Position numbers and translations under genes: made by a program
Notes under the pieces: generated by a model
The model's database searches: none
Told to the model about the DNA's origin: nothing
Seen by the model: the letters and a program-made list of their open reading frames with translations, nothing else
Shown here: positions 13,922-62,240 of the stretch, one piece after another
How the letters are laid out: each line of letters begins with the position of its first letter
Numbering within the stretch: position 1 is the first letter of the stretch
Virus record (IMG/VR): IMGVR_UViG_3300043464_002177
Direction: 5' to 3' (one strand)
Source of the DNA: a virus
Lineage: Duplodnaviria > Heunggongvirae > Uroviricota > Caudoviricetes
DNA length: 64,000 bases

Positions 13922-13960
13922 TAGATCGCCCCTCCCCATAAAGGGGTGAGGGGCTCATAG
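13922..13960. repeat. Hairpin family B copy 2: TAGATCG-CCCC-TCCCCATAAAGGGGTGA-GGGGC-TCATAGAAC
   Basis: Stem GCCCC/GGGGC 13928-13932/13950-13954; same conserved flanks and loop as B1 with compensatory stem change; abuts 3' end of - strand ORF 13955..14137. Confidence 0.55.
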
Positions 13961-34960: not shown

Positions 34961-35524
34961 ATGGGAATTAAAATAGTTTTAACGGAAAGCCAACTTAATA
35001 GGTTGGAAAATAATGTAGGGAAAAGTGAGGTAAAAGAAATGAGAGTTAGCCTTGGGTGTACCTACATGAATTATAATAGTTTAGTTAACTTTCTTGGAGA
35101 CAAACCTTCAAGAAAATTGGGTAATAATACTATTGTTCATATGGTTAAACCATTAGACACTCGTGAAGAAGAAGTGGCTGTTAAATACTGGAGCACAAAT
35201 ATCATTAGAATAAACCCAGAAAACGTTGTTACCTTAAACACGAATGGTCACGAAACAAACACAACAAAAGACCGTTTAAATCAATTCTTAAGCTGTAGAG
35301 ACGCTTATGTTTTCCAAAAGAAACATGTTTGGTACATTAAAAACCGCCAAGAAACTATTGAATACCAAGATGGTATGCAAATCTTACCAGACGGTCATTT
35401 CTATATTCCTGGTGGGGTAGATCCTAGAAAAATAAGTGCTCAAATTGAAAAAATGAAGGATTTAGATATTGATCCAAAGTACAGAGAGCTTTATGGTTTA
35501 TCCGACGAGGAAAAAACTAATTAA
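34961..35524 (+). CDS. hypothetical protein
   Basis: ORF, + strand, convergent with M23 gene. Confidence 0.5.
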   Translation: MGIKIVLTESQLNRLENNVGKSEVKEMRVSLGCTYMNYNSLVNFLGDKPSRKLGNNTIVHMVKPLDTREEEVAVKYWSTNIIRINPENVVTLNTNGHETNTTKDRLNQFLSCRDAYVFQKKHVWYIKNRQETIEYQDGMQILPDGHFYIPGGVDPRKISAQIEKMKDLDIDPKYRELYGLSDEEKTN

Positions 35525-38500
35525 CCCTTCATTGTATATTTCTTATACTCACCACTTTCTGGATTGAAAGAATAGAAAACATTTTGTACGTTTTTAATCA
35601 AATACGTTTTTCCAGTTCTATCTATTTTATTTTGACCCACACCTAAAAATTGTGGGTGTAAAATTGTTTCACCGTTTTGTTTGATTAATCCCCAATATCC
35701 ATCTTCAGTTTTAACAGCGATGTTACCGTTAGAATCTACCGGACTATTCTCCGCAAATCTAGTTAAGAATGGTAATATTTCACTACACGAATATAATGAT
35801 CTCTTAATTCCTCTCTGACTAATAATAGCAATTCTTTGTTCTTCATTGAATTTTCTAAATCCGTGATCAATAAAACCGCAGAATAATTGATAGTTATCAA
35901 ACAATTCTTGAGATATCTCTTTAAGTGCGCCAGCAAAAAATTCCATAGCCGCCTCTGTGGTTGCTTTCTTATCTAATTGTTTGGTTAAAATGTTGTTAAT
36001 TCTTTCTGCGAAGTTAAGAACATAAACTCGCTTAACGCTGCTAGATATTGTACTGAAATCATCGATAGTATCAACAACCATCTTGTCTGTGAACTTAGCA
36101 CTAAATTCCTCACCTTTATCCATTTCAATTGCGGCCGCAAGTAATTCAGCTCTAACTTTGTTAGAGAATTGTGAGAATGTTAATTCATTGTTTAAAATAG
36201 CTTCAATAATCTCCGGCCAGTTATCTGAATTATTAATATCAAATTTTAACGCCGCATTTCCTTGATATACTTTTCTTAAGTCCTCTGGTGACAAATCAGT
36301 TAAATGAAAATTATCTTCATATCTATGAACACCTTGTTGTGTTAACTGTGTTACAGGATATCTAGTATTAATTAAAAAATCAACAATTTGTTTGTGAAAT
36401 CTAGTGGTTGGTTTTTTATTGCCATGTCTGTGGAAATCACCAAGAATACCACCTGGTCTGTAGTCAACTGTTAAATATGATTCACCTTCACCAAATTCAT
36501 TAATTCTTCTAAATGATATTAACTTACCAGTGTTTGATCTACCACAGTGTCCCATTCTTTCTCTCTCATCATCACAATATCCTTTACCTAAATGAACCCA
36601 ATAATAACCAATACCATCTGCGTTTCTATAATCAATAAAAACATCTCCAGTTTCTTGATAGTTACTTTGTTTTCTTACTTGTAAAGTATCGTGCCATTCT
36701 TGAGCTTGACTATATGCATCTTCCAAGCTCATCGCTCTAATGTTAAGCTGTTCTCTTCTTGGTGCACGAATCCAGTGCATGATGTATTCGTACTTTGGTT
36801 TATAAAGTCTATCCCAAGTTGGATTTCTATTTGGTGATGTTGCATTAAACAATTCAACAGTATATTCTTTTGGGTCTTTACCATTTAAATCAATATCTGT
36901 CATTTGAAGATTTCTTATATAATCTTTTACAAATGTATCTACAATCCAGATTGATAACTTGTCACTTAAATTATGAAATTCATTTGCCCAGTCATCATTA
37001 AAACCAAATGCATTCTTAATTGCTTGTCTCTTGTCCGCTTCGTTTAATAACTCTTCAGCTAATGTTGATTGATTTTTGGTTTTCAATTGTGCATATATTG
37101 GAGCGTTCTTTTCTCTAATGTTTTTTATTAAAGATTTCAATCCTTCTTCATATTTTATAGGTGTTGCATAATGACTACCAATAGAATTTCTAAAATCATT
37201 TACCAAATCATTAGCGGTTTTACCTTTAACAAGATATCTCCTAGCTATAAGATCGTAATAAAGATCCACACCGGATTGGAAACTAGGTTGGTAATTATCC
37301 TTATATGGTTTGTCAGTATTTCCAACATTAAAAGGATTCTTAGTCTTAATTGGTCTAGCATTAGAATCTGTACTCAATCCACCTTCAAGTGTTAATTGTG
37401 CTAAAGCTAATTCCGGTGGAACATACTTACCATATCTTTTAAAAACACTTTCCGCTGATTTAGCCATCATAGCACCAGTGACATTGGTACCTTGTTTTCT
37501 TTGTGTAATAAAGTTACTACATATTTTTTCATATGCGTCAACACCTTCTGGTGTGTTTAAATCTAAATCTGTGAAATCAATTGAACCACCAGTTGTAACC
37601 GCAGGATCTATATGTTTTTTAATATCATCTGATGTTATATTTTTAGATTTTAGATCACTAATCAATTGTTTAACCATCTCTGTAGATATGGTCGCACCAC
37701 CTAAGACTGCCACAGATGAACCACTATCATAGTAATCACCAATAGATGACCCAAAATATTGCATTGGATCAACTCTTTGACCATTTTTCTTAAGTGTTAA
37801 ATGTAAGTGAGGGCCTTGTGAATTGCCTGAACCTTTAGCACCAACAGCACCGCCGGTTAAACCTATTACAACACCTTGTTTAATGATATCACCAGCCTTT
37901 ACATTTATGCCAGATAAGTGACAATAACCACTTGTTAAACCTTCCGCATGTTCTACTGATATACCATCTCCGCACTTTGAACCCAATGGGCCGGCCGCTA
38001 TTACTTTACCATCCGCAATTGACTTAATCGGTGTACCAACTTTAGCGCCGATATCTATACCACCATGAATTCTATTTCCTCTTTTTTCATTAAATCCATG
38101 TTTAATATCACTTGTGATTGGCACAGGTGTTATTAATACCATTTCATTTAAATCTGTAGCATTAGCTGCAGCAACATTGTCTTCTGCAGTGTCATCATCA
38201 ACTATATTCTTTTCTTCTTTATACTTGTTAACAGCGGCTGCTGTTTCTGGACCAAATAATCCGTCAGTACCAAATCTAGGTAAACTATAACCCAATAACT
38301 GTAAACCAATTTGTACAGCTTCAACGCCTTGTTGTCTGGTCATTGAACCGTATTTTTGTTGTGTTATTGGGGATTTTATATTATCAAGTATCTCGTAAAA
38401 ATCTTCAACATCTCCACTAATGAAATCCGCTTTATGTGGAACATCGCTACTTTTTTTCTCAACAGGTACATCTAGTCCGGAGATAAAATCTTTAGCAGCA

Positions 38501-38628
38501 TTAATTCCTTTATTAGCACTATCGGCTCCTTTGGAGATTAAATCATCCAAAACGTCTTCATTGACATTTTCATTTGAAAGTCTCTGTTTTAACCTTACAA
38601 TCTGGTCCTCGTTAAATATAAATCTCAT
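35521..38628 (-). CDS. 1035-aa multidomain cell-wall hydrolase: PG-binding domain + M23 (LytM) peptidase + large C-terminal region
   Basis: GYSLPRFGTDGLFGPETAAAVNKYK (PG_binding_1-like); HGGIDIGAKVGTPIKSIADGKVI ... GPHLHLTL (M23 H-x-x-x-D and H-x-H motifs); size fits a virion-associated or tail lysin. Confidence 0.55.
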   Translation of the reverse strand: MRFIFNEDQIVRLKQRLSNENVNEDVLDDLISKGADSANKGINAAKDFISGLDVPVEKKSSDVPHKADFISGDVEDFYEILDNIKSPITQQKYGSMTRQQGVEAVQIGLQLLGYSLPRFGTDGLFGPETAAAVNKYKEEKNIVDDDTAEDNVAAANATDLNEMVLITPVPITSDIKHGFNEKRGNRIHGGIDIGAKVGTPIKSIADGKVIAAGPLGSKCGDGISVEHAEGLTSGYCHLSGINVKAGDIIKQGVVIGLTGGAVGAKGSGNSQGPHLHLTLKKNGQRVDPMQYFGSSIGDYYDSGSSVAVLGGATISTEMVKQLISDLKSKNITSDDIKKHIDPAVTTGGSIDFTDLDLNTPEGVDAYEKICSNFITQRKQGTNVTGAMMAKSAESVFKRYGKYVPPELALAQLTLEGGLSTDSNARPIKTKNPFNVGNTDKPYKDNYQPSFQSGVDLYYDLIARRYLVKGKTANDLVNDFRNSIGSHYATPIKYEEGLKSLIKNIREKNAPIYAQLKTKNQSTLAEELLNEADKRQAIKNAFGFNDDWANEFHNLSDKLSIWIVDTFVKDYIRNLQMTDIDLNGKDPKEYTVELFNATSPNRNPTWDRLYKPKYEYIMHWIRAPRREQLNIRAMSLEDAYSQAQEWHDTLQVRKQSNYQETGDVFIDYRNADGIGYYWVHLGKGYCDDERERMGHCGRSNTGKLISFRRINEFGEGESYLTVDYRPGGILGDFHRHGNKKPTTRFHKQIVDFLINTRYPVTQLTQQGVHRYEDNFHLTDLSPEDLRKVYQGNAALKFDINNSDNWPEIIEAILNNELTFSQFSNKVRAELLAAAIEMDKGEEFSAKFTDKMVVDTIDDFSTISSSVKRVYVLNFAERINNILTKQLDKKATTEAAMEFFAGALKEISQELFDNYQLFCGFIDHGFRKFNEEQRIAIISQRGIKRSLYSCSEILPFLTRFAENSPVDSNGNIAVKTEDGYWGLIKQNGETILHPQFLGVGQNKIDRTGKTYLIKNVQNVFYSFNPESGEYKKYTMKG

Positions 38629-38909: not shown

Positions 38910-39228
38910 CCAGCAGAACGAAAACTATCTTATCAATTCTAATGATAGATTCTTTTGTATTTTTGTTTCTAACGTCACAACATATTGTTACTGATGTTGT
39001 TCCAAATTTAACCAAATCCATACCAAATTCAATTACATCACCAACCTTTGCTGTGGTTACAAAATCAATCTCAGACATTGCTTTAGTTACAATATTAGAA
39101 CTACTCAATTGACAAATGGCAAATATTGCGGCCTCCTCATCAATCCACTTTAATAATTGACCACCAAATAATGTGCCTCTTGGGTTTAAATCACCTGGTT
39201 TAATCAACTTTCTAGTTCTATATATCAT
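38866..39228 (-). CDS. hotdog-fold acyl-CoA thioesterase (YciA-like)
   Basis: GTLFGGQLLKWIDEEAAIFA ... VGDVIEFG resembles YciA/4HBT family. Confidence 0.45.
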   Translation of the reverse strand: MIYRTRKLIKPGDLNPRGTLFGGQLLKWIDEEAAIFAICQLSSSNIVTKAMSEIDFVTTAKVGDVIEFGMDLVKFGTTSVTICCDVRNKNTKESIIRIDKIVFVLLDENGRPKSHNKKNK

Positions 39229-39823
39229 CAGTTAAAAATTTTAAAATCTTTTCTTTAATACCGGTTTGTTTTATCCCTTCAGATCCACGAGGCGTCTCAA
39301 CGAAGTTATCCAATCCCCATTCATGTACATATTCAACACTATAATCAAGACCAGTTTTACCCATTCTTAAATCATCAATTGAAACCCAATGAGTCACTTC
39401 TGGGTGGTCATGTAAGTATTGTTTGATCTCAATACATCTGGTCTGTTCTAAATCCCATTGACGAGACCAGGGGAATCCAGCTTTATAACCTTCAATATAC
39501 CAAGTACATTGACCAAGGTTTGGCGTGAAATCTATAGGTTTCTTGATAATACCTTGTTGTTCATAATATTCACCCATCTGTTCAACACTTGCCCATCTCT
39601 TCCAATCTGAACTAACAACAATTTCAGCACCAGTTTCTTCTAATATTGAATTTAAAAGTTTAATTGCTTTATCATCAAAGTTATCGAAACGATATTCCAA
39701 TGGAATTTCATCATTGGTCATGGATAATTTACGTCCACCCCAATCTTTTTGTTTTTTAAATCGTCCACCCCAATTATTGGATAAACAAATCACACCATCG
39801 TGATCAAGAAATATTACTTTCAT
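39218..39823 (-). CDS. HAD-superfamily phosphatase
   Basis: Motif I FLDHDGV, motif II VVSSDW, C-terminal SIDDL. Confidence 0.45.
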   Translation of the reverse strand: MKVIFLDHDGVICLSNNWGGRFKKQKDWGGRKLSMTNDEIPLEYRFDNFDDKAIKLLNSILEETGAEIVVSSDWKRWASVEQMGEYYEQQGIIKKPIDFTPNLGQCTWYIEGYKAGFPWSRQWDLEQTRCIEIKQYLHDHPEVTHWVSIDDLRMGKTGLDYSVEYVHEWGLDNFVETPRGSEGIKQTGIKEKILKFLTDDI

Positions 39824-40142
39824 CCTTTCTTTTTTTAAGTATTAATCTAAATGTACTCAAAAAACCTAAAAACATGAATAGTTGAACTGGCCAATACGGG
39901 AGATTTTGCAGTTCATGAAGCATCCAAAATATGTTCATATTAAGCCATGATAATAGAACAAGATTACTATCTCTTGATTCTTTCTCCCCAATAAAAATGT
40001 ATAATGCTAAAAGCAAAGTTGGTAAAACCATTACTGTAGCCATCCACGTCCATTTCAACGTCCAAAAAACGTCTTTAAGTAGCCACGAAATTACATGGAT
40101 CTCATGAGTATTCAAAATTTTTTTATGAGTTTCCTTCGACAT
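39804..40142 (-). CDS. hypothetical membrane protein
   Basis: Three hydrophobic helices. Confidence 0.4.
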   Translation of the reverse strand: MSKETHKKILNTHEIHVISWLLKDVFWTLKWTWMATVMVLPTLLLALYIFIGEKESRDSNLVLLSWLNMNIFWMLHELQNLPYWPVQLFMFLGFLSTFRLILKKRKDESNIS

Positions 40143-40548
40143 ATTCTAACTGAGGTGTCCAAACACCTTCAGAAATTACTTTGGGTGTCCCATTTCTATC
40201 GATCATAACCCACTCATAATTCACAATACCCCAAGGTTCAAATTGCTCAATAACATCTTCAAGACTGAAACACTTACATGAATAGATATCAAATTGAGCC
40301 ATAGCTGGTTCGTGATGATCCCAGATATGTATTGAGGAATGAGAGGTTGCTAAAGTAACTGTTCCTGTTAATCCTTCATTACCTGGATAATCAACATAAA
40401 CACTGGTTGGTCCGCCAACCACTTCCATCTTTACTTTGTGGACTAAATCAACAAACCATTTATTAAGAACATCCACCTCTTTTGGTGGATTTTTAACCCA
40501 AATCTTCATTAGAAGATGTTGATGATATGGAACAAATTCTTCCTGCAT
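40123..40548 (-). CDS. speH: S-adenosylmethionine decarboxylase proenzyme, SpeH/class-1b-like (pyruvoyl-dependent)
   Basis: VTLATSHSSIHIWDHHE matches the autoprocessing-site motif (AESHISIHTWPE) of small bacterial AdoMetDCs; size 141 aa fits. Confidence 0.55.
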   Translation of the reverse strand: MQEEFVPYHQHLLMKIWVKNPPKEVDVLNKWFVDLVHKVKMEVVGGPTSVYVDYPGNEGLTGTVTLATSHSSIHIWDHHEPAMAQFDIYSCKCFSLEDVIEQFEPWGIVNYEWVMIDRNGTPKVISEGVWTPQLEYVEGNS

Positions 40549-40625
40549 TAGTATAATTTTTACTATACATATATATCATCAAAATTGTATTTTTTTATGA
40601 TTTATTTAAAATAGATTTCCATCTA

Positions 40626-41306
40626 TTATTTGGTGAACTTTTTGAAGTTCTTTACGAATGGACGTTCGTATTTTTTAAGTTCCTTTACCTCTAAACCGTT
40701 GTATAAACCGGTAGACATAAAAGCTTGAATTTCATCATCAATGATCTTCTTATCATCAACATACCCCATCTTAATAAGCTTCTTTTTTAACTTATTGTAA
40801 TGTGTTGGTTTGATCTCAGCAATTAGTTTCTTAACCTCAGCATTATATTCTTTATTTGTATAATATAAACCATGTGCGATTTCATGATCGATAGTCTTAA
40901 GATCTTTACTGCTAGCACCAATTAGATACCATGGTTTATGAGTACCATCATTCTTTTGTTGCGCATCAGAACCACAATAGAAATAAATGTTATTCATTAT
41001 TTCATCATACTGTGTTTCCTTATAAAAAGCATCAACACCTTTCTCTAGTATATTAGATGGAATATTATAACCAGTCCAATCTTCTGGATATGTAAAGACA
41101 TCTTTCTTCCAGAACTTCTTATAATGTCTCATATACTCTACCCAAGAAAAATATTTTCCTCTGAATTTTTTAAATGGGGTTTCATAAAATTCTTGATAAC
41201 GACAGAACAACATAGCCCTATCATAATTGTCATCAACAATTACACAATAGATAGATGGTTTTATTTCTTTTACTTTACCTTTAACTAAAGGGTGATTTAT
41301 TTTCAT
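40626..41306 (-). CDS. hypothetical protein with HExxH motif
   Basis: IDHEIAHGLYY; no family recognised. Confidence 0.45.
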   Translation of the reverse strand: MKINHPLVKGKVKEIKPSIYCVIVDDNYDRAMLFCRYQEFYETPFKKFRGKYFSWVEYMRHYKKFWKKDVFTYPEDWTGYNIPSNILEKGVDAFYKETQYDEIMNNIYFYCGSDAQQKNDGTHKPWYLIGASSKDLKTIDHEIAHGLYYTNKEYNAEVKKLIAEIKPTHYNKLKKKLIKMGYVDDKKIIDDEIQAFMSTGLYNGLEVKELKKYERPFVKNFKKFTK

Positions 41307-41381
41307 ATTAAATGTTTAAGAATAATTGTTAACGATTAAACACCATGTTTTAATATAGTTAAAAAGTTGGAAATAAAAAAA

Positions 41382-41711
41382 TTAAAGTGCGAAACTTTCT
41401 CCACACCCGCAGGTCCTTGATGCGTTTGGATTTACCCATTGAAATCCTTTCCCGTTTAAACCACTAGAGTATTGTAGTTCAGTTCCGAATAAATAAAGAA
41501 CAGATTTTTTATCGATCACCACTTTAAGTTCTGGTAGTTCGATGATCTCATCCATTTCGGTAATGTCTGTATCAAAGTCCATAACATATGATAGCCCACT
41601 ACATCCACCACCCTTAACCCCTACACGCAAAAAATGGGTACCGTTGTCGATACCCTCTTCTTTCATAACGTCTTTAAGATGTGTTAATGCTGTCTCAGTA
41701 ATAGTAATCAT
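41382..41711 (-). CDS. iscA: A-type Fe-S cluster carrier (IscA/ErpA/HesB family)
   Basis: GGGCSGLSY and C-terminal TCGCGESF: the three conserved Cys at canonical spacing. Confidence 0.7.
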   Translation of the reverse strand: MITITETALTHLKDVMKEEGIDNGTHFLRVGVKGGGCSGLSYVMDFDTDITEMDEIIELPELKVVIDKKSVLYLFGTELQYSSGLNGKGFQWVNPNASRTCGCGESFAL

Positions 41712-43648: not shown

Positions 43649-43877
43649 AAATCTAATATAAGATATTTTTTTGAAAATAAAAAATCACTTAACAAACATA
43701 GAAATTAAAACTAATTTTATGTGTTTTACCCAACCCAAGAAACTGTTTTCTCTTTGATAATTCTTGTATTTTTCTTGATAATACTCTCTGTTGTATCGTT
43801 TCATAAAAGTGTTATTTGATTTCGAACGCTAAATTATAAAATATAATTAGAATCAAAAAATTTTTTATAATAATTTT

Positions 43878-45275
43878 TTAATCTGTTGATTTTGAAGACG
43901 TTATAACATCATATTTTTCTTTATTTGGTGTAACATCTTTGTATTTCTCCATTTTTTTGCTGAACATATCAATAACTTCTGTGAATTCTTTTGATGGGTT
44001 TGAATTTGCTTTTCCTCTAAACTGATTTAAATGCCCCTTCCTATATTGAATGTTAACTCTTTTACTACCTAAAGACATTGAGGCGTGAATGTATAATGCC
44101 CCAACTGGAAACTGTTTTGCCATACAGTTCTTCATTACCATCCCCTCAATTTTGAATTGATCTTCAGTTAGAATTAATGATGGTTTATATATTTTGTCAC
44201 CTATTTTAATAGGTTCTTCAAGATCCTTAATCATTTCTTCTGGTAATGAATATTTTAACTTGTAACCTAATTTAAAATGCTTCTTATGTAGCTCCCAGGT
44301 GTCTTTTAGTGATATTAATTGATGACAACTGTTTGCTTTTATTTTAACAATTAAATTTTCTTTTTTTAAAAATTCCTTTAATATAAAAAGATCCTGAATT
44401 GTGTTAAGAATACCATCGCTGGTTATTACTTCAACTTCAGAATATTTTTTTAAAGAATTTGCTAATGCTCGTTTTTCTGGTTCATTGTCACAGACGAAAG
44501 TTTTATTACTTTTAACATACTCTAAACAAATCGTTTCCCAGTCGAATTCTCTAAGGTAATCAATGTAATTACTACCAAATAACGTACAAAGAAATTTGAC
44601 TGATTTAAAGTTAATTTTAGTTATGCTTGGTTTTCTACTTGATAATGCGCCAATAAGATATTTGGTTTTAATACCGTATTGATCTAGAATAGCTGGAATG
44701 AATTTCCAATCATTTTGTTTGAGGTATTTTTTTTTAGGGTAAGCTTCACATATGTCCCAATAGATACAGTCGTGACCTTTAATACCTTTTTTATTTAAAT
44801 GGTATTCTAAAACAAGATCGTACAAGGGGTTTACGTTATGAGTTTTGTCTTGCTGAACGTTTTCGATTTTAAGATCGTTAACTATTAATTTATATACATC
44901 AAGACAAGCTTTTTTATATTTTACCCCCCAAAAGTTAAATCGTTTTTCACCAGTGTAAAATCCTCTACTGGTAAATTCCATTAACATATCGAAGTTGTTT
45001 TTTTGTGCTCTCATAATGTTCTTATGAAGCATATGACTATTTTCTTTTTTGTTTAATAGTCTGTATATAACATTAATGTCCCCGGTTGATTTATTAATAG
45101 TTAAACCATGTTCATATGTTAAATAATTTTTTTTACCCATTCTTGAATATTCAATATAATATTCAGAAATCAACATAAGAAAATCATTATCTGATGCTAA
45201 CTTTAATTTACATAAATTTCTATGTGGTTTATTTCTTTCGTATTTTTCTTGTTCGTGATAAAATAAAACTTCCAT
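43878..45275 (-). CDS. hypothetical large protein, paralogue of 45327..47234 (possibly PcfJ-like C-terminal region)
   Basis: EAYPKKKYLKQNDWKFIPAILDQYGIKTKY aligns with EAYPTKHFLKKNDNKLVAAILDRIGIKSKS of neighbour; C-terminal KIEGMVMKNCMAKQF vs EEGGHMHHCVASY. Confidence 0.55.
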   Translation of the reverse strand: MEVLFYHEQEKYERNKPHRNLCKLKLASDNDFLMLISEYYIEYSRMGKKNYLTYEHGLTINKSTGDINVIYRLLNKKENSHMLHKNIMRAQKNNFDMLMEFTSRGFYTGEKRFNFWGVKYKKACLDVYKLIVNDLKIENVQQDKTHNVNPLYDLVLEYHLNKKGIKGHDCIYWDICEAYPKKKYLKQNDWKFIPAILDQYGIKTKYLIGALSSRKPSITKINFKSVKFLCTLFGSNYIDYLREFDWETICLEYVKSNKTFVCDNEPEKRALANSLKKYSEVEVITSDGILNTIQDLFILKEFLKKENLIVKIKANSCHQLISLKDTWELHKKHFKLGYKLKYSLPEEMIKDLEEPIKIGDKIYKPSLILTEDQFKIEGMVMKNCMAKQFPVGALYIHASMSLGSKRVNIQYRKGHLNQFRGKANSNPSKEFTEVIDMFSKKMEKYKDVTPNKEKYDVITSSKSTD

Positions 45276-45326
45276 CTACATCTTAGTTTACCTAAAATAT
45301 AGATGGAAATTATATAATAATAAACT

Positions 45327-47234
45327 CTAAAAATCTAAAAAATTGGGAAGGAGATTTTCTTCCTTAACTGCTAATTGAACACCATTAATTACTAATGGTA
45401 TTCTTTCTTTCGAAATTGATTTGATAGATCCTTTATAGGCTAAAATTCTATCTTGTAATATAACCAATGCTGTTTCAAATCTCTCTGGTGGTTTAGCATT
45501 GCAAAAATACTTTTCTTGAACACACCCCTTATCTCTAACATCATATTCACAAGTTACCCTTTCGTTCCCAAGTACATTATCTTCTCTAAGAGAAACAATA
45601 ATAGATTTTTCTTTATCTGCATACGATGCCACACAGTGATGCATGTGTCCACCTTCTTCGGTATACTCACCATCAATTTTTAACAACACTGGATAAAATG
45701 TTCCCATTATTTCATCATCCAAGTTTTTAACAATTATCGGTTTTTCAATATGCTTTATCAACTTATCCTCAAAAACGTATTTGATGCTATACCCTTTTTT
45801 TATCTGTCTATCTAACTTAGCCAATTCTAAATGTTCGTTATGAAAATCACTTAGATTATTCGCCCTCATTTCAATATTTGGTAAAAACCTTCTTATTTTG
45901 ATTAACATATCTAAATGATCATTGAACGCACCAAATTGTGAACGCACAATACTATTCCCCATCAAACTAGAATTACTGCTTTTATACCCATCATCTTCAG
46001 TATCAATCTTTTCAATAAATTCATTTATTAATTTAAGTAAACAGCTTTTTTCTGAATCTTTAATATCATAAATGTGTTTGTTTTCCATTGCAAAATAGAT
46101 AGAACTATCATCACTAAAAATACCTTTTTCTTTGGGTATCCCCCAATACTTTTCATTTATGTTATGTATGTACTTGTGCAAGTCGTCATAACCAAAATAT
46201 CTTGCCATCAATATCAATTTACTAATATCGATCTTTGGGAATTTATGTAACAATCTTATTGTACTTTTCGATTTAATACCAATTCTATCTAGTATAGCTG
46301 CCACCAATTTATTATCATTCTTTTTTAAGAAATGTTTTGTTGGATAAGCTTCCATTAATAACCTTTTATAATCATTAGGTACTTTAATTTTATTAACAGA
46401 AATAAATGTTTCCATCGAAATTAATAACATTTTTTTTCTAATGTTTAATTCGGTATTAGATATAATATTAGCATTGTGTGGAATTTTTGATAAGATGCTA
46501 TGAAATAAACATTTCATAAATTCATCATCATTAAAAACGTTATTTGCCTCTTTATTTATTGGGTGATCTTTATCAGAATCATTACCCCTAATATAGATAA
46601 TAGAAATTGCGGTTCTACCAAAAAACTGATTAAGAACCTGAGAGAGATGTTTAAAGTTGTTCTGTCTTATTTTAGGTTTTTCAGTCCCTTCATAACTAAT
46701 AACATTACCAGTTTTAAAGTTTATTTTAAAACCTAATGCTGTTCTAGTTTTCTTAAAGAATTTACAATTTACAACTCTACTTTTTTTATATACATAAAAC
46801 CTTACTGAAATTGTATCCTCATCTACTGTTATGTTTCTTTCTTGTATTTCTACAGAAACACTACTTAGCGGTCTACCGTAATGTTTTAATAAATGTCGTT
46901 CTTTGGTTGTATAAAATGTAGGAAAACTGGGGTTCCAATTATCTAGGTTAATTTGTTCCCCTTCAAGCTCATTGCTATAAAAATATTTTGTATTTTTCTT
47001 TTTAAGTTCCTTTTTATTGAAAAGCCTAATTTTGTGACCACCCTTGAACTTTACTCGAGATTCAGTACCATCTTTAATGTTGGTAAGAAGCGTTTCAAAA
47101 AAGTCTATATTGGATAAACCCAAATCTAGTTCTTTCCTAACCTCATTTTCTCTTTTTTTTTCAAGAGATGTGTAATCCTTATATGGTTCAATCGCATAAA
47201 ACTGAAACCGCTGGGCTAATACGACTTTTTTCAT
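45327..47234 (-). CDS. hypothetical large protein (635 aa), paralogue of 43878..45275
   Basis: Shared colinear blocks with the 465-aa neighbour; E-G-x-M-x-H-C-V-x-x-Y near C-terminus recalls PcfJ-like proteins (tentative). Confidence 0.55.
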   Translation of the reverse strand: MKKVVLAQRFQFYAIEPYKDYTSLEKKRENEVRKELDLGLSNIDFFETLLTNIKDGTESRVKFKGGHKIRLFNKKELKKKNTKYFYSNELEGEQINLDNWNPSFPTFYTTKERHLLKHYGRPLSSVSVEIQERNITVDEDTISVRFYVYKKSRVVNCKFFKKTRTALGFKINFKTGNVISYEGTEKPKIRQNNFKHLSQVLNQFFGRTAISIIYIRGNDSDKDHPINKEANNVFNDDEFMKCLFHSILSKIPHNANIISNTELNIRKKMLLISMETFISVNKIKVPNDYKRLLMEAYPTKHFLKKNDNKLVAAILDRIGIKSKSTIRLLHKFPKIDISKLILMARYFGYDDLHKYIHNINEKYWGIPKEKGIFSDDSSIYFAMENKHIYDIKDSEKSCLLKLINEFIEKIDTEDDGYKSSNSSLMGNSIVRSQFGAFNDHLDMLIKIRRFLPNIEMRANNLSDFHNEHLELAKLDRQIKKGYSIKYVFEDKLIKHIEKPIIVKNLDDEIMGTFYPVLLKIDGEYTEEGGHMHHCVASYADKEKSIIVSLREDNVLGNERVTCEYDVRDKGCVQEKYFCNAKPPERFETALVILQDRILAYKGSIKSISKERIPLVINGVQLAVKEENLLPNFLDF

Positions 47235-47306
47235 TTGTGATTTTTTTTATTCCAAGACAAATATATAATATTTTTTTGAATAATTATAAAAAATAAAGAA
47301 AATATT

Positions 47307-47438
47307 ATGGCAAAAACAAAATCAGCTGGTAGTTCACGAAAGGTATCTTTTGGTAAAAAAGGTAAAGGTAAAGCTAAGAAGAAATTCGGTCCTAAAGAAC
47401 AAAAACCAAAAAGATACGTAGGTCAGGGTAGAGTTTAA
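47307..47438 (+). CDS. hypothetical 43-aa highly basic protein (not in track)
   Basis: MAKTKSAGSSRKVSFGKKGKGKAKKKFGPKEQKPKRYVGQGRV; 4-nt overlap with convergent NlpC/P60 gene. Confidence 0.35.
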   Translation: MAKTKSAGSSRKVSFGKKGKGKAKKKFGPKEQKPKRYVGQGRV

Positions 47439-47917
47439 TTTTTAAGTCTACCAGACCCTTTATAGGATTTCATATACTTTGGCTCTTTAAGAGAACTTAT
47501 CTTAACACCCTCAAATTTATTTGCTGCGTGAACAAAATAGGTGTTTCCAATGTAAGCCCCACAATGCCAGCCAGATGGCGATTGTCTACTACGGAAGAAG
47601 ACAATATCCCCAACTTGTAAACTATCACGCTTAATTCTTATGGTTTGATTCCATTGTTTATATGCCACGTTTTCCAGTTGTTTACCATAAACATCTTTAT
47701 ATAAACGTTTTGTGAACTGTGAACAATCAATACCCTTTTCAGTCTTACCACCCAACTTGTATGGTTTACCTAACCATTTTAAAATAAAACTATTTAAAAC
47801 AGAGTCTTCAGTAAAAATCCCCGTATCAAATTTATCCAAAGGTACTTGTGCAATTAATGTTGTTGGTAAAAGTAGCGATCCGATCACCACAATTAATTTT
47901 AATTTGTTTTTAATCAT
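47435..47917 (-). CDS. secreted NlpC/P60 (C40) cell-wall peptidase, candidate endolysin
   Basis: Signal peptide; GIDCSQFT catalytic Cys context and downstream GWHCGAY His. Confidence 0.55.
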   Translation of the reverse strand: MIKNKLKLIVVIGSLLLPTTLIAQVPLDKFDTGIFTEDSVLNSFILKWLGKPYKLGGKTEKGIDCSQFTKRLYKDVYGKQLENVAYKQWNQTIRIKRDSLQVGDIVFFRSRQSPSGWHCGAYIGNTYFVHAANKFEGVKISSLKEPKYMKSYKGSGRLKN

Positions 47918-48225
47918 AATAAGCCTAATAAATAGTAAGAGAGTTTATAGCCAGCGAATGCCCCTAAAGCAGATGGTATTGGAAATACAATCATCTTACC
48001 TAAGTCGGTCACATACTTTGGTCTATTAACAATTTTACCCATGAAAAAATAATAGGTTAAATAACCTACTAGCACTGCAATATCGGTTCTTGTAGCGATA
48101 AACACAACTAAAGTTGCACCGATAAATCCAAATGTAAAGTTATCTCGAACACCTTCCCAGATTTCAAACCAGGTAGCGTCTTTCCACTCTTTATATATTT
48201 TTTTTGATTTATTTTTCACCATCAA
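47914..48225 (-). CDS. small membrane protein, candidate holin
   Basis: 2-3 TM helices, directly upstream of and overlapping the peptidase gene. Confidence 0.3.
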   Translation of the reverse strand: MMVKNKSKKIYKEWKDATWFEIWEGVRDNFTFGFIGATLVVFIATRTDIAVLVGYLTYYFFMGKIVNRPKYVTDLGKMIVFPIPSALGAFAGYKLSYYLLGLL

Positions 48226-51862: not shown

Positions 51863-53218
51863 ATGAAGAAAAAAATACTATTGTTATCTGATGATTTAAG
51901 AATGTCATCAGGTATTGCCACTATGTCGAAAGAGATTGTGATGGGCACCATACACAAGTATGATTGGGTACAACTTGGTGCTGCAATTAAACATCCAGAG
52001 TTCGGTAAAGTTGTTGATATAAACGATGATATCCGTAAAAGAACTGGTGTTAAAAATGCAAATTTAAAAATAATCCCATACAATGGTTATGGTGATATTG
52101 GTGTTTTAAGAAAATTAATAAAAGAAGAGAAGCCGGATGCTATTCTTCATTTTACTGATCCACATTATTGGCAGTGGTTGTATGATAATGAACATGAAGT
52201 TAGACAACAAGTTCCTTTATTGTATTATCATATATGGGATAATTTACCAGATCCATTATATAATAGAAACTATTATGAAAGTTGTGACTGGTTAGGTTGT
52301 ATATCTAAGCAAACATATGGTATCGTACATAGAGTTGGTAAATTACAAAATGGTTCCACATGGAAACCTTTAGAAGATTGGCAGATCAAATACGTTCCTC
52401 ATGGTATTAACCCAGAAACATTCAAACCATTGGATAAAGTTTCAGATGAAATAAAAAATATTATCTTTGGTGATAAGAAGTATGATTTTGTTTTATTTTT
52501 TAACAGTAGAAACATTAGAAGGAAACAACCAAGTGATGTTATCTATTCATTTAAATTGTTTTGTGATCAACTACCAAAAGAAAAAGCAGATAAGTGTCTA
52601 TTATTAATGCACACAGCCGCTGTTGATGAGAACGGAACAGACTTACCAGCAGTTATCGAAACTCTTTGTCCATATGATGTTAAGTTTACAGGATTAAAGT
52701 TAGAACAAGATAAGTTAAATGAAATATATAACCTAGTCGATTGTACTATCAACATCGCTAACAATGAAGGGTTTGGTTTAACAACGGCAGAATCATTGAT
52801 GGCTGGTACACCAATTATTGTTAATGTGACTGGTGGCTTACAAGATCAATGTGGATTTGAATATAGTGCAGATGATTATATTTCAGTTGGAACGTTACAT
52901 AATAAAAAAGTACACAGCTCAATATCACATGGCGAATGGGTAGAACCGATTTGGTCATCAGCTATAAATTTAAATGGATCTGTACCAACCCCATACATTT
53001 TTGATGACAGGGTAAACGATGATGATGTTGCAAATGTTATCATGAAGATGTATAAGATAGGTAAGAAAAAAAGAAAAGCAAAAGGATTAAAAGGTAGAGA
53101 GTTTATGTTAAACAATCTATCCAATAAAATAATGTGTGATAAAATGATTGAGGGTATTGAAGATGCTCTTAAGAATTGGGAACCTAAAAAAAGATTTGAT
53201 TTATATAAAATAGTATGA
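51863..53218 (+). CDS. GT-B fold glycosyltransferase (GT4/group-1 family)
   Basis: NNEGFGLTTAESLMAGTPIIVNVTGGLQDQ matches the E-x-F-G ... E-A-x-A-x-G-x-P-V-I signature. Confidence 0.55.
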   Translation: MKKKILLLSDDLRMSSGIATMSKEIVMGTIHKYDWVQLGAAIKHPEFGKVVDINDDIRKRTGVKNANLKIIPYNGYGDIGVLRKLIKEEKPDAILHFTDPHYWQWLYDNEHEVRQQVPLLYYHIWDNLPDPLYNRNYYESCDWLGCISKQTYGIVHRVGKLQNGSTWKPLEDWQIKYVPHGINPETFKPLDKVSDEIKNIIFGDKKYDFVLFFNSRNIRRKQPSDVIYSFKLFCDQLPKEKADKCLLLMHTAAVDENGTDLPAVIETLCPYDVKFTGLKLEQDKLNEIYNLVDCTINIANNEGFGLTTAESLMAGTPIIVNVTGGLQDQCGFEYSADDYISVGTLHNKKVHSSISHGEWVEPIWSSAINLNGSVPTPYIFDDRVNDDDVANVIMKMYKIGKKKRKAKGLKGREFMLNNLSNKIMCDKMIEGIEDALKNWEPKKRFDLYKIV

Positions 53219-54474
53219 GTAAACCGTTTTTATTATTTAGAGGGCCAGTACAAACTAGAAGTGGGTATGGCGCGCATTCAAGAGACCTTTTACAGGCTCT
53301 GTATGAAATGAACACATATGACATTAAGATTGACAGTTGTGGCTGGGGATCAACCCCAATGACTGCGCTAGAAAAAAATAATGTTTTTCATAAATGGATA
53401 GAATCAAATATCATATCATCACTAACAACACAGCCAGATGTTTATGTTCAAGTAACTGTACCAAATGAATTTCAAAGAGTTGGTAAGATTAACATAGGTA
53501 TCACTGCTGGAATTGAAACAACCGTCGCACCTAAATCTTGGGTTGATGGTTGTAACAAAATGGATATGATCATTGCGACATCACAATTTTCTAGTGAGGT
53601 TTTAATGAGTACAGTTTACAATGAGACCGATAATGTTACAGGAAAATTAATTAAACAACATAAGATTGAAAAACCAATAAAGGTTCTTTTTGAAGGTGTT
53701 CATCCTGATACATTCAACAATGAATATAGTGATATCGATTTAAATATTAATGAAGATTTTGCTTTCCTTTTTGTTGGTCATTGGTTAAAAGGTAATTTAG
53801 GTCAAGACAGAAAAGATGTGGGTATGTTAATCAAGTGTTTTGTTGAGGCATTTAAAAATGAGGAAAACAAACCGGCATTGATTCTTAAAACTTCATCAGC
53901 AACTTTCTCAATAAAGCAAAGAGAAGATCTATCTAAAAAAATAAAAGAATTGGTTGGTGACATTGAAACACCGCCACCAATTTACCTATTGTTTGGAGAA
54001 TTAACAGATAAAGAAATGAACAATCTTTACAACCATTCTAAAATTAAAGCAATGATTTCTTTAACAAAGGGTGAAGGATTCGGTAGACCACTATTAGAAT
54101 TCACAATGACTGGCAAACCGGTTATTGCATCTAATTGGTCTGGACATAAAGATTTCTTACCAATGGATAAGGGAATCATGATTGGCGGTAAATTAAACGA
54201 AGTTGATGAAAGTGCTATTGATGATTTCATTTTAAAAGGTTCAAAGTGGTTCACCGCAAATTACAATGAAGCTGCTGAAGTTATGAAGATCGTAAAGAAT
54301 GATTACCAGAAATTTTTAGATCGTGCAGAAAATCTAAGAATTGAAAATTCGACTAAGTTTAGTTTCCAGAGAATGGTAGAAGAGTTTGAAAAATTGTTAC
54401 CGAAAACAGTTCCACAAGAAGAGTTACCAAAACAAAAGCCAATTAACTTACCTAAATTAAATAAAATAAAATAA
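53215..54474 (+). CDS. GT-B fold glycosyltransferase (group-1-like)
   Basis: GEGFGRPLLEFTMTGKPVIASNWSGHKDFL. Confidence 0.5.
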   Translation: MSKPFLLFRGPVQTRSGYGAHSRDLLQALYEMNTYDIKIDSCGWGSTPMTALEKNNVFHKWIESNIISSLTTQPDVYVQVTVPNEFQRVGKINIGITAGIETTVAPKSWVDGCNKMDMIIATSQFSSEVLMSTVYNETDNVTGKLIKQHKIEKPIKVLFEGVHPDTFNNEYSDIDLNINEDFAFLFVGHWLKGNLGQDRKDVGMLIKCFVEAFKNEENKPALILKTSSATFSIKQREDLSKKIKELVGDIETPPPIYLLFGELTDKEMNNLYNHSKIKAMISLTKGEGFGRPLLEFTMTGKPVIASNWSGHKDFLPMDKGIMIGGKLNEVDESAIDDFILKGSKWFTANYNEAAEVMKIVKNDYQKFLDRAENLRIENSTKFSFQRMVEEFEKLLPKTVPQEELPKQKPINLPKLNKIK

Positions 54475-54483
54475 AATGCCTAT

Positions 54484-55107
54484 ATGAAAATTAGTTTTGC
54501 GATCACAGTATGTAATGAGTTTGAAGAAATCAAACAGTTAGTACCATTCTTAATCGAGAACAAAAGAGTAAACGATGAAATTGTTATTCTATTTGATAAT
54601 AAAAATGGAGATGAAAGAGTCTTAAATTATTTGTTAGAATTTAATAAACTACCAAATGTGCAGACTTGGCAAAGCATGGATTTTAATAATGATTTTTCGG
54701 AATGGAAAAATAAATTAAACGAATATTGTACAGGTGATTATATTTTTCAATTAGATGCTGACGAATTAATAAGTGAGTATATGGTTAAAAATCTACATGA
54801 GATAATCGAAGCTAACGATGAGATTGACTTATTTTATGTCCCAAGAATCAATACAGTAAAGGGAATTACTGAAGAACATATTAGAAGATGGAGATGGAAT
54901 GTAGACGCCGATGGTAGAGTAAACTTCCCAGATTACCAGGGTAGAATTTATAAATCTAAATTAAAATGGGGTGGTAAGGTACATGAAAGAATAGTAGGGG
55001 CTAAATTTTATTCTCTATTACCAACAGAAGATATGTACTCGTTATCACACCACAAAACAATTAGTAGACAAGAAAAACAAAATGATTATTATGAAAACAT
55101 TAAATGA
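54484..55107 (+). CDS. GT-A fold glycosyltransferase-like protein
   Basis: ISFAITVCNE ... FQLDADELI (DxD). Confidence 0.4.
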   Translation: MKISFAITVCNEFEEIKQLVPFLIENKRVNDEIVILFDNKNGDERVLNYLLEFNKLPNVQTWQSMDFNNDFSEWKNKLNEYCTGDYIFQLDADELISEYMVKNLHEIIEANDEIDLFYVPRINTVKGITEEHIRRWRWNVDADGRVNFPDYQGRIYKSKLKWGGKVHERIVGAKFYSLLPTEDMYSLSHHKTISRQEKQNDYYENIK

Positions 55108-55633
55108 AATTTATCAAAATTATCAATCACCTGATGGTCACGGTGATAAGGGCACAGCGCACACATACATAGATGAATATGAAAGATTATTAGAACCATA
55201 TAGAAAGAATTCAATTGTTCTTGAAATTGGTTTATGTGAAGGCGAATCTTTGAGAATGTGGGAAGAATATTTTATTGATTCAAAAGTGATTGGTGTCGAT
55301 ATCACTAGCAAATATTTAAGTGAATTAATTAAGGAGTGTACACATCACATTATTATTGCTGATGCAACTAGAGAGAGTATAATAAATAAAATTGATGAGA
55401 AAACATTTGATGTTTTAATTGATGATGGTAGTCATCGTCTAGTAGATCAACTAAAAACATTTTTTATTTTTAAAAATAAGATTAACCCTGGTGGGATTTA
55501 TATTATTGAAGATATTGAGGATTTGGATAATGTAAAAAATATCTTCTTAGCACTTCACAATAACGTAGAAATTATCGATAATAGACATATAAAAGGTAGA
55601 CACGATGATGTGTTAATAGTATATAAATTTTAA
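55082..55633 (+). CDS. class I SAM-dependent methyltransferase
   Basis: VLEIGLCEGES (motif I), VIGVDIT, VLIDDGSH. Confidence 0.5.
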   Translation: MIIMKTLNEIYQNYQSPDGHGDKGTAHTYIDEYERLLEPYRKNSIVLEIGLCEGESLRMWEEYFIDSKVIGVDITSKYLSELIKECTHHIIIADATRESIINKIDEKTFDVLIDDGSHRLVDQLKTFFIFKNKINPGGIYIIEDIEDLDNVKNIFLALHNNVEIIDNRHIKGRHDDVLIVYKF

Positions 55634-55636
55634 ACT

Positions 55637-56632
55637 ATGAAAGTATTAATTACAGGTATTGCGGGGCTGCTAGGTTCCAGATTAACAGATTACATCATTG
55701 AAAATCATCCGGATGTTCATATTGTTGGTATTGATGATTTAAGCGGTGGTTATTATGAAAACATTAATCATAAAGTTCCAGAATTTAGAAGATTAAATTT
55801 GGTAACAGGTGATTTGGAAAGTTGTTTTGAGGAACATAAATTTGATTATGTATACCACTTTGCAGCATATGCTGCTGAAGGTTTATCACCTTTCATTAGA
55901 AAATACAATTATGAAAATAATTTAATTTCAACAACCAGGATTATTAATCAATGCATCAAACACGATGTTAAAAGATTAGTTTTCACATCTACTATGGCAG
56001 TTTATGGGCATGGTTATGGTGATGTCTTTGATGAAGCTCAAATCCCTTCACCAATTGATCCATATGGTATTGCTAAATACGCTTGTGAAATGGATATTAA
56101 AGTTGCTGGTGAACAACACGGGCTTGATTGGTGCATCATTAGACCACACAATGTTTATGGGATTAAACAAAACATATGGGATAAATACCGTAACGTATTA
56201 GGTATTTGGATGTATCAACATATGAACGGTGAACCAATGACAATATTTGGAGATGGTGAACAAAAAAGAGCGTTCAGTTATATTGATGATTGTTTAGAGG
56301 GATTATGGAAAGCATCACAACTTCCTGAATGTTCTAAAGAGATTATTAATTTAGGTGGTACTAAACACTATACCATAAACGAAGCAAATAAGATTTTGCG
56401 TGAAGTTATTAATGGTGGAGAGACTATCCACAAAGAACAAAGACATGAAGTTAAAACAGCAGTACCCACTTGGGCTAAATCTGTTAGACTACTTGGTTAT
56501 GAAGATAAAACATCTTTACATGATGGTTTAAAATCAATGTGGGAGTGGGCTCAACAGCAACCAAAGAGAGATAGATTCATATGGGATTCATATGAACTAG
56601 ATAAAGGAATTTATAGTTTTTGGAAAAAATAA
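55637..56632 (+). CDS. NAD-dependent sugar epimerase/dehydratase (extended SDR)
   Basis: VLITGIAGLLGSRL Rossmann motif; YGIAKYACE (YxxxK). Confidence 0.7.
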   Translation: MKVLITGIAGLLGSRLTDYIIENHPDVHIVGIDDLSGGYYENINHKVPEFRRLNLVTGDLESCFEEHKFDYVYHFAAYAAEGLSPFIRKYNYENNLISTTRIINQCIKHDVKRLVFTSTMAVYGHGYGDVFDEAQIPSPIDPYGIAKYACEMDIKVAGEQHGLDWCIIRPHNVYGIKQNIWDKYRNVLGIWMYQHMNGEPMTIFGDGEQKRAFSYIDDCLEGLWKASQLPECSKEIINLGGTKHYTINEANKILREVINGGETIHKEQRHEVKTAVPTWAKSVRLLGYEDKTSLHDGLKSMWEWAQQQPKRDRFIWDSYELDKGIYSFWKK

Positions 56633-56636
56633 GAAT

Positions 56637-57218
56637 ATGAAAAAAATAGAATTTATTATCCCAACTTATAACAGACCAGATAAATTAATGGTAATGTTAT
56701 CATCAATAAAAGCTCAATCCGTTGACTTATGGAAAGTGCATGTTGTTGCTGATGCAGTATATGACGGGTATCAAGAAATAAAAGATTACTTTAAAGATGA
56801 CGAGAGATTTAAATTCTCTGAATTAAATGGTCCACATAAAGATTGGGGTCACACAGCAAGAAACTATGGATTAGAAAGAGCTGAAGAAGAATGGGTAGTA
56901 ATGTCTGGTGATGACAATTATTATGTTCCTGTTTTTGTTGCAGAATTTTTAGATGCGGTAAAATTCAGAAAAGACGCAAACTTCGTTCATTGTAATTTAG
57001 TACACAACTGGCTAAACAATGATTATATTGGTTTAATGTCTAGACCTCAACTTAACGGTATTGATATCGGTAACTTTATGACAAAGACAAAATTCGCAAA
57101 ACAAATGAGATTAGATGTTACTAAAGTAGATGCTGATGGGTTATTTGTAGAAGAATATATAGACAAATTTAAAGGAGGTATCATTCACATTCAAAAAATA
57201 TTATATGTCCACAACTAA
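56637..57218 (+). CDS. family-2 glycosyltransferase
   Basis: EFIIPTYNRPDKLMVMLSSI; SGDDNYY. Confidence 0.5.
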   Translation: MKKIEFIIPTYNRPDKLMVMLSSIKAQSVDLWKVHVVADAVYDGYQEIKDYFKDDERFKFSELNGPHKDWGHTARNYGLERAEEEWVVMSGDDNYYVPVFVAEFLDAVKFRKDANFVHCNLVHNWLNNDYIGLMSRPQLNGIDIGNFMTKTKFAKQMRLDVTKVDADGLFVEEYIDKFKGGIIHIQKILYVHN

Positions 57219-57648: not shown

Positions 57649-57651
57649 TAT

Positions 57652-62073: not shown

Positions 62074-62106
62074 TTTGTTTTTGTTTAAGAAAAATTTATA
62101 AAATTG

Positions 62107-62196: not shown

Positions 62197-62240
62197 TTGC
62201 AATCATATTATAATATAAACAAAAAATATCAGATATACAA

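Follow-up and report, generated by a model that had tools for sequence, protein, structure and literature searches.

A tandem pair of PcfJ-family paralogues with a conserved RNA hairpin at the gene junction: a candidate two-subunit unit of uncultured tailed phages

The window analysed here, a stretch of 64,000 nucleotides from the IMG/VR virus record IMGVR_UViG_3300043464_002177 (Caudoviricetes), looks like phage DNA as judged from its gene content. It encodes on its minus strand two adjacent large proteins related to the PcfJ family, here called the long copy (635 aa) and the short copy (465 aa; Table 1). The two proteins are paralogues, their genes occur side by side in a constant order across related phages, and the start codon of the short gene lies within a covarying RNA hairpin just downstream of the stop codon of the long gene. 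These observations led us to propose that the pair is a co-produced two-subunit PcfJ unit acting jointly, a reading of the sequence data to which we give about an even chance of being right. We regard the pair as a variant of a known, functionally uncharacterised family with an unexpected RNA element, and it overturns no existing ideas.

Two PcfJ-family paralogues in constant order

An initial annotation of this DNA, made without database searches, had described two adjacent open reading frames (ORFs) of 465 and 635 aa that arose by duplication. Both ORFs were found on the minus strand with exactly the coordinates given, and the four peptide blocks quoted as shared are all present. The duplication was borne out by formal alignment. 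BLASTP aligned residues 175–446 of the short copy with residues 293–601 of the long copy (314 aligned positions, 24% identity, E = 5e-14). Family alignments were then built from metagenomic homologues (37 long sequences, alignment A1; 41 short sequences, alignment A2), and hhalign matched the two families with a probability of 99.95% and an E-value of 3.3e-38 over 383 columns. Since this alignment spans residues 164–602 of the long copy and 53–447 of the short copy, the paralogy covers almost the entire short protein; compared with that protein, the long copy is enlarged by an insertion within the N-terminal domain and is slightly extended at the C-terminus. AlphaFold2 (AF2) models with pLDDT values of 81.8 (long) and 90.2 (short) predict the same architecture for both proteins: an N-terminal beta-sheet domain, an all-helical middle domain, and a C-terminal alpha/beta PcfJ domain. 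The best-conserved shared block, the mid-block in Table 1, looks like a helix-turn-helix, but it matched no Pfam helix-turn-helix family and the assignment was dropped.

The same annotation had pointed to a resemblance of the C-terminal block to PcfJ proteins. For the long copy the resemblance is clear: it matched Pfam PcfJ (PF14284) with 40.9 bits and an E-value of 2.3e-10, the gathering threshold being 25 bits. The short copy, in contrast, gave no Pfam match even at E ≤ 10 and none in NCBIfam or PHROGs. When canonical PcfJ was defined from Bacillus-phage proteins (alignment A4), hhalign aligned it with the long family at a probability of 97.8% (E = 7.1e-13, 250 columns, 22% identity), and the similarity extends into the helical middle domain. 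The short family matched canonical PcfJ weakly (35%, E = 4e-4) with the motif in register, and is connected to PcfJ by way of the long family through the comparison described above.

The two copies differ in the signature residues of the C-terminal domain. Canonical PcfJ has eight invariant residues (E392, G393, C399, Y403, R418, E431, Q439, and G442) and three near-invariant ones (H398, S402, and N445), and its signature reads E-G-N-x-L-x-H-C-V-A-S-Y. Residues E527, G528, M531, H532, H533, C534, V535, Y538, and R550 are invariant among the long copies and E563 is nearly so; the stretch EEGxxMHHCV occurs in all 58 distinct long copies from IMG/VR. Compared with canonical PcfJ, the long copy retains E527, G528, H533, C534, Y538, R550, E563, Q573, and N579 and has H532 in addition, and thus carries the signature E-G-x-x-[LM]-x-H-C-[VI]-x-[ST]-Y with the downstream Arg and Glu, which the short copy does not. 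At the canonical Gly position, the long copy has Tyr or His followed by Phe-Cys (Q-x-[KR]-[HY]-F-C-N), Gly being found in none of the 58 sequences. In the short copy, Lys and Asn occupy the positions of the two His residues of the long copy, and EGxxMKNCM is present in 56 of 56 distinct sequences. The substitutions are His to Asn, Tyr to Gln, and acidic residues to Lys or Gln (motif M-K-N-C-M-x-x-Q), while Q-x-x-G-[KR]-[AT]-N is kept in all 56. The element Q-x-x-G ... N, which follows the third strand of the beta-meander, is therefore found in the short copy and missing from the long copy. The C-terminal block that the annotation had noted as common to both proteins is real, although the spelling E-G-x-M-x-x-C should be corrected to E-G-x-x-M-x-x-C.

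A single-copy relative of 537 aa, encoded at two loci (L129 and L130), possesses both M-K-H-C and Q-C-K-G-K-Q-N, like canonical PcfJ, and this motif state looks ancestral. Because one protein carries both motifs there, the losses in the pair look complementary and appear to have followed the duplication.

The family resemblance also covers features other than the signature. The canonical proteins of Enterococcus pheromone plasmids and of Bacillus phage Bcp1 (gp048) share with the pair the series E-G-x-x-[LM]-x-H-C-[VI]-x-S-Y ... R ... E ... Q ... N in a C-terminal alpha/beta domain, a size of about 450–650 aa, a beta-rich N-terminus, and carriage on phages or plasmids. Canonical PcfJ is encoded by a single gene in Bacillus phages and on plasmids, whereas a fixed long and short pair is found here; the long copy is distinguished by H-H-C, the replacement of the invariant Gly by Tyr or His, and an added Cys, and the short copy by K-N-C and a similarity below Pfam detection. 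The Bcp1 protein was the sole match of the long copy among cultured-phage proteins, through the C-terminal ~74 aa, and no match was obtained there for the short copy. The last ~80 residues of the long copy and the Bcp1 protein are about 40% identical, and elsewhere the similarity to canonical PcfJ was seen by profile comparison only.

Both families are widespread among uncultured phages. The long family has 56 full-length homologues and at least 220 clusters at 50% identity (E ≤ 1e-30), and the short family has 270 homologues (clusters at 90% identity), the full-length ones measuring 456–479 aa among the matches listed. Relatives were found on uncultured phage contigs from IMG/VR and metagenomes that reach 255–340 kb, and a long protein identical to that of the window is also encoded on contigs of up to 117 kb. 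A nucleotide search with the region among 50,697 cultured-phage records gave no match, and nucleotide and protein searches of cultured phages revealed no relative bearing the pair.

Scanning IMG/VR for the short family gave 79 loci, 74 of which had enough upstream DNA to be assessed. In 74/74, a long-family ORF lay directly upstream on the same strand. The short gene was likewise present at all eight metagenome loci anchored on the long gene, and nearly all true long-family loci in the IMG/VR scan carry it. The arrangement is the same in relatives whose long copy is only 33–47% identical, inside the same conserved neighbourhood (thymidylate synthase (ThyA), NlpC/P60 protein at most loci, small divergent ORF, long gene, short gene, and several small ORFs in a row). 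Among 53 distinct pairs, the short copy was the better-conserved member in 50, the mean difference being 4.9 identity points. From these sequence comparisons, we judge that the duplication is ancient and has become fixed in a large clade of phages that are uncultured and mostly have large genomes.

The junction hairpin and candidate co-production of the two copies

The spacer between the two genes contains an RNA hairpin that the initial annotation did not mention and that is described here for the first time. Its 3' arm holds the start codon and the first codons of the short gene, and the predicted folding energy in the window is -26.7 kcal/mol (z -8.7). An equivalent hairpin with the ATG paired was found in 41 of 42 distinct junctions (mean z -5.4), and the ATG occupies a constant place within the 3' arm (alignment A6). 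The arms differ between lineages in a compensatory manner, as in the pairs TTTCCATCTA/TAGATGGAA, AATCCATATAT/ATATATGGATT, and GTTATTGTCTACAT/ATGTAGATGATAAC. No Rfam family matched the hairpin.

Covariation was tested on an arm-anchored alignment of 33 distinct sequences. In this alignment, 87.7% of the cells are paired, compared with 28–50% when the partner arm is slid, a percentage that is inflated by taking the register from each sequence's own predicted fold and to that extent overstates the case for a conserved structure. The register leaves the compensatory changes and the asymmetry between G·U and A·C uninflated. Ten of the 17 pairs are altered on both sides, compensatory cells number 79 against 32 ± 3.4 in shuffles, and the covariation score of 0.439 (0.05–0.10 in slid controls) was reached by none of 500 shuffles. 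Among the 13 core pairs, G·U occurs 34 times and A·C twice. This excess of G·U indicates that selection acts on the sense-strand RNA and not on a DNA palindrome, and on that ground a DNA palindrome or operator was rejected.

The position of the hairpin relative to the long gene is also constrained. In 32 of 44 distinct junctions, 12–15 nt separate the long stop codon from the stem base, although the spacers of the relatives measure 35–55 nt, most commonly 36 nt. A ribosome positioned at a stop codon extends about this far downstream. A Shine-Dalgarno element is not evident at the start of the short gene. The short ATG is paired in a covarying sense-strand structure whose stem could be reached by ribosomes that terminate on the long gene, as expected of a sequestered start. 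Because the ATG lies in such a hairpin at this distance from the long stop codon, we infer translational coupling: a ribosome finishing the long gene would open the hairpin and permit translation of the short gene, and the short protein would then be made only when, where, and in proportion as the long protein is made. In the infC-rpmI-rplT operon of E. coli and in RNA phage MS2, translation is coupled through a start site sequestered in an mRNA structure. In those systems as in the present junction, the downstream start is paired, in a structure that ribosomes terminating upstream can reach; they differ in that coupling in the PcfJ pair is deduced from covariation and geometry only.

The hairpin could instead serve attenuation or termination, RNase III processing, or mRNA stability, and so set a lower, independent level of the short protein, which would count against co-production; we consider this alternative improbable. 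A consensus scan called the structure terminator-like, with a T-rich tail in the window, and the stem of the window lineage is a near-perfect duplex of ~20 bp. A duplex of this kind is long enough for RNase III. The T-rich tail after the window stem, however, belongs to the coding sequence and shows no conservation (in one lineage the stem is followed by ...ACACACGAACAT), and the stems are AT-rich with only two to four G-C pairs. For lack of a conserved U-tract, a general intrinsic terminator was rejected. Moreover, the place of the ATG in the 3' arm is constant, and neither a terminator nor a processing site would need the 12–15 nt between stop codon and stem.

Two further features were observed at the junction. 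A box CTACACAA(T) directly follows the long stop codon at most junctions (e.g., L038:5965, L013:5954, and L026:5939); it occurs once per locus of ~13 kb, with 0.2 occurrences expected per strand, and the window lineage has AGTTTATTATTATAT in its place. In addition, a two-codon start-stop, ATG TAG, abuts the short ATG in frame inside the 3' arm (Table 1). Two of the three main lineages have this start-stop, which may be a by-product of the stem sequence.

In the proposed two-subunit unit, the products of the long and short genes would form a hetero-oligomer, to which the long subunit would contribute a His-Cys-centred site and the short subunit a degenerate half, either complementary or regulatory. 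Such a heteromer may have arisen by subfunctionalisation of an ancestral homo-oligomer. AddA/AddB and RecB/RecC are adjacent homologous chains of which one keeps the catalytic residues and the other has partly lost them and stays conserved. The comparison with the PcfJ pair is an analogy only, with no sequence or fold relationship, and the complex and activity of the PcfJ pair are predicted.

The initial annotation had taken the two genes as a specificity-diversified pair with different targets. In the corresponding alternative, the paralogues are independent effectors, each with its own target, and a common promoter would be the sole reason for their adjacency. In favour of this view, a strictly conserved motif distinguishes each copy, so that each must be under its own selection, canonical PcfJ is a single-copy gene in Bacillus phages and on plasmids, and long-type genes without an adjacent short gene exist, indicating that the long copy can stand alone. 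A diversified pair predicts lineage-specific copy number, turnover, and independent expression. The opposite pattern was found, which argues for co-production and joint function: the pair is ancient and one-to-one, with no copy-number variation, reshuffling, or lineage-specific expansion and with a constant order at all assessable loci, and the motif of each copy is invariant (58/58 and 56/56). The short copy has lost the canonical-invariant His, Tyr, and Glu, and independent action of the products does not readily account for a start sequestered in a covarying hairpin whose distance from the upstream stop codon is fixed. Effectors engaged in an arms race usually evolve fast, yet the slower-evolving of the two copies is the short one. 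The claim of different targets was thus not upheld, and we think independent effectors unlikely.

Several observations weigh against a jointly acting pair. The chief evidence against an obligate partnership comes from long-only lineages: two loci (L118 and L119) carry long-type genes and motifs with no short copy within 2.4–3.9 kb downstream, and a long-type protein is apparently able to act alone or with a partner encoded elsewhere. The 537-aa relative at L129 and L130 is a single-copy protein, the long gene of L131 is fragmented, and L133–L135 carry distant, single PcfJ-like genes. Fold and structure comparison gave no match revealing an activity for either copy.

Genomic surroundings of the pair

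The features of the window are listed in Table 1. The pair is preceded by an A-rich leader, the probable promoter region of the long gene, which is shared with a small basic ORF on the opposite strand. Nearly all of the relatives, the long-only locus L119 among them, keep this ORF in sequence and position, and it has no Pfam match. A scan for sigma-70-like promoters found none within the leader, and the matches over the whole scanned region did not exceed the shuffled expectation. A TAtaTTTG match in the leader carries no weight, the motif not being enriched in the window, and a Bacteroidota host suggested by the TAnnTTTG -7 box was rejected (95 matches; 100 ± 11 expected). In the gap downstream of the short gene, neither a terminator-like site nor an Rfam family was found.

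Table 1. Features of the window around and beyond the PcfJ-family pair
Feature	Position	Strand	Remarks
Long PcfJ-family gene	45327–47234	-	635 aa
Short paralogue	43878–45275	-	465 aa
Intergenic spacer	45276–45326	-	51 nt; from long stop TAG (45329–45327) to short ATG
Mid-block, long copy	46263–46352	-	EAYPTKHFLKKNDNKLVAAILDRIGIKSKS, aa 295–324; best-conserved shared block
Mid-block, short copy	44658–44747	-	EAYPKKKYLKQNDWKFIPAILDQYGIKTKY, aa 177–206
PcfJ (PF14284) region, long copy	45483–45926	-	aa 437–584
Long signature	45630–45659	-	E-E-G-G-H-M-H-H-C-V, aa 526–535; alignment A1
Short signature	44121–44147	-	E-G-M-V-M-K-N-C-M, aa 377–385; alignment A2
RNA hairpin	45267–45311	-	~20 bp; 3' arm holds short ATG (45275–45273) and first codons
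ATG TAG start-stop	45276–45281	-	two codons; abuts short ATG in frame, inside 3' arm
Gap downstream of short gene	43649–43877		229 nt; no coding-strand ORF of at least 40 aa
A-rich leader	47235–47306	-	probable promoter region upstream of long gene; common to divergent basic ORF
Basic ORF	47307–47438	+	43 aa (MAKTKSAGSSRKVSFGKKGKGKAKKKFGPKEQKPKRYVGQGRV); divergent from pair
NlpC/P60 protein	47435–47917		signal-like N-terminus; putative lysin, near pair
103-aa ORF	47914–48225		membrane-spanning reading, from inspection of sequence only
1035-aa multidomain protein	35521–38628	-	M23 peptidase, 85.8 bits, above Pfam cut-off
413-aa protein	28023–29264	-	ArdC N-terminal domain (antirestriction-type, ssDNA-binding)
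Auxiliary-gene run	39218–41711	-	HAD_SAK_2 (RNA-repair-type HAD), AdoMet-decarboxylase-like, 226-aa ORF without assigned function, IscA-like Fe-S assembly
Glycosyltransferase cluster	51863–53218, 53215–54474, 57652–58764 (within 51863–58764)	+	at least three genes
tRNA-Arg(CCG)	62106–62196	-	91 nt, ARAGORN; overlaps 5' end of 634-aa ORF 60298–62202 (TTG start)

On the other side of the basic ORF, the genes for the NlpC/P60 protein and the 103-aa ORF are plausible lysis genes. Cell-wall functions are also represented by the 1035-aa protein, in which the matches to peptidoglycan-binding, glucosaminidase, and RNase_T-like exonuclease domains are weak and all below the Pfam cut-offs; its gene is kept beside the locus in most inspected relatives, the product being cut by the locus end in several. 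Farther downstream in the relatives, the IscA-like, AdoMet-decarboxylase-like, HAD, and giant-protein genes are present in varying subsets, and the first three of these recur in the auxiliary-gene run of the window. The window further encodes thymidylate synthase (ThyA) and a T5orf172-type protein. The 413-aa protein with the ArdC N-terminal domain represents a second plasmid-like function in this phage, besides the PcfJ pair.

The glycosyltransferase genes, which PHROGs annotates as phage morons, suggest surface or DNA glycosylation functions, and an epimerase/dehydratase is additionally present in the corresponding cluster of the relatives. The tRNA-Arg(CCG) is unusually long, and either the tRNA call or the start of the overlapping 634-aa ORF may be wrong. 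Positions 1–14000 have a G+C content of 35–43%, positive GC skew, and plus-strand genes, while beyond 14000 the G+C content is about 29–34% over most of the sequence and the genes lie mainly on the minus strand; this change of composition and strand near 14 kb marks a module or strand boundary.

PcfJ on invading DNAs and a candidate role for the pair

The occurrence of canonical PcfJ was also surveyed. PcfJ genes were found only on invading DNAs, namely phages and plasmids of the conjugative or mobilisable kind, where they sit in establishment or anti-defence modules and often come directly after PcfK. A tblastn search located PcfJ on 502 plasmids, 450 of them from Enterococcus, and the C-terminal PcfJ profile matches 2,464 clusters at 50% identity. 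On plasmids of E. faecalis, S. equinus, and C. botulinum, the PcfJ gene directly follows a gene annotated as 'Cas9 inhibitor AcrIIA9 family' (L089:7376–9492, L090:5593–8480, and L137:3915–6483), and two of these gene pairs have abutting stop and start codons. Pfam confirmed the PcfK domain (PF14058) in both upstream proteins that were scanned, those of E. faecalis and S. equinus. AcrIIA9 is reported to carry a PcfK domain (PMC6739104). Of the two proteins, only PcfK/AcrIIA9 is reported to have an activity shown by experiment, the inhibition of Cas9. No discussion of a recurrent AcrIIA9-PcfJ two-gene module was found in the literature searched.

PcfJ has further neighbours in these and other settings. 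One context includes ssb, thermonuclease, and DpnD/PcfM genes; another includes LPD1 and a 1757-aa SNF2 protein; on an Alicyclobacillus plasmid, PcfJ adjoins ArdC-like, JAB, and DnaN genes; and topoisomerase III and type IV secretion genes are found in yet another context. In a C. difficile phage-plasmid, PcfJ lies in a replication module with PHP polymerase, ERF, DnaB, and primase, and the gene of Bcp1 lies between PhoH and thymidylate synthase.

The plasmid module and the phage pair are alike in that a PcfJ gene on an invading DNA is tightly coupled to one partner, in the module by abutting or overlapping stop and start codons. The two arrangements differ in the partner, which on the plasmids lies upstream and is PcfK, a protein unrelated to PcfJ, and in the phages lies downstream and is a degenerate PcfJ paralogue. 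PcfJ appears to work with a fixed partner in both settings. The idea that the short copy is a hidden relative of PcfK was rejected, PcfK being unrelated to either copy.

These contexts raise the possibility that the two-subunit unit acts early on DNA or on a host factor and so would help the incoming genome to establish itself or to evade defence. A role in establishment or anti-defence is plausible only by association and weakly inferred. The anti-defence function suggested in the initial annotation is possible, its support being indirect and coming from the plasmid PcfJ genes located near PcfK (AcrIIA9), ArdC-like, ssb, and SNF2 genes. On the opposite side of the balance, the link is one of guilt by association drawn from distant Firmicute relatives, phmmer searches with two PcfK queries found no PcfK among the window ORFs of at least 40 aa, and the ORFs neighbouring the pair gave no PcfK match in Pfam.

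Alternatively, the pair may consist of accessory proteins of DNA replication or recombination, or of virion-carried proteins ejected with the DNA, and not of counter-defence proteins. The replication module of the C. difficile phage-plasmid and the nearby DnaN gene of the Alicyclobacillus plasmid are consistent with this, as are the thymidylate synthase genes of Bcp1 and the window and the neighbouring cell-wall hydrolases, which are typical of virion-associated proteins. Nevertheless, family and profile searches found no similarity of the pair to replication, recombination, or structural families, the PHROGs family matching the long copy is listed as of unknown function, and the adjacency to PcfK/AcrIIA9 recurs across three genera. 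We consider this alternative somewhat less probable than either independent effectors or a hairpin without a coupling function.

Searches aimed at an activity returned little. PDB sequence and profile searches gave nothing for either copy, and NCBIfam gave no match for the pair. PADLOC returned none for the long copy and only weak matches for the short copy, to HEC-01B (E 0.0029, 15.9 bits) and ZorC (E 0.0099); the match to HEC-01B, a candidate defence component, spans residues 163–285 (about 44421–44789) across the mid-block and is too weak to interpret. A GNAT acyltransferase fold was considered for the C-terminal domain and gained no support from the sequences. Of motif A (Q/R-x-x-G-x-G/A), canonical PcfJ and the short copy have Q-x-x-G, but various residues (A, G, C, S, M, F, or Y) occupy the final G/A position in canonical PcfJ and the long copy lacks the Gly; no Pfam acetyltransferase match was obtained at E ≤ 10. 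A PD-(D/E)xK nuclease, a tyrosine phosphatase (C-X5-R), a papain-like Cys-His enzyme, an ADP-ribosyltransferase, and an HD-domain protein were dropped by inspection on account of misfits in spacing or conservation, and none of the five had support from any tool. No functional study of PcfJ was found in the literature searched, and there is no solved PcfJ structure.

A bolder version of our proposal is that PcfJ is an enzyme family for establishment or counter-defence, which in these phages would have become an obligate heterodimer of an active and a degenerate paralogue, with a composite His-Cys / Q-x-x-G site and a stoichiometry enforced by the hairpin. We hold this version to be doubtful. 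If it is true, a shared activity would explain why PcfJ follows the anti-CRISPR gene PcfK (AcrIIA9) on plasmids. The recurrent adjacency of the two genes is a lead toward a possible part of PcfJ in counter-defence. The complementary residue losses in the two paralogues amount to a natural experiment, which may hint at the residues that work together. Pfam does not recognise the short subfamily with its 270 clusters. By occluding the start of the short gene, the covarying hairpin offers a testable mechanism for setting subunit stoichiometry in phage operons.

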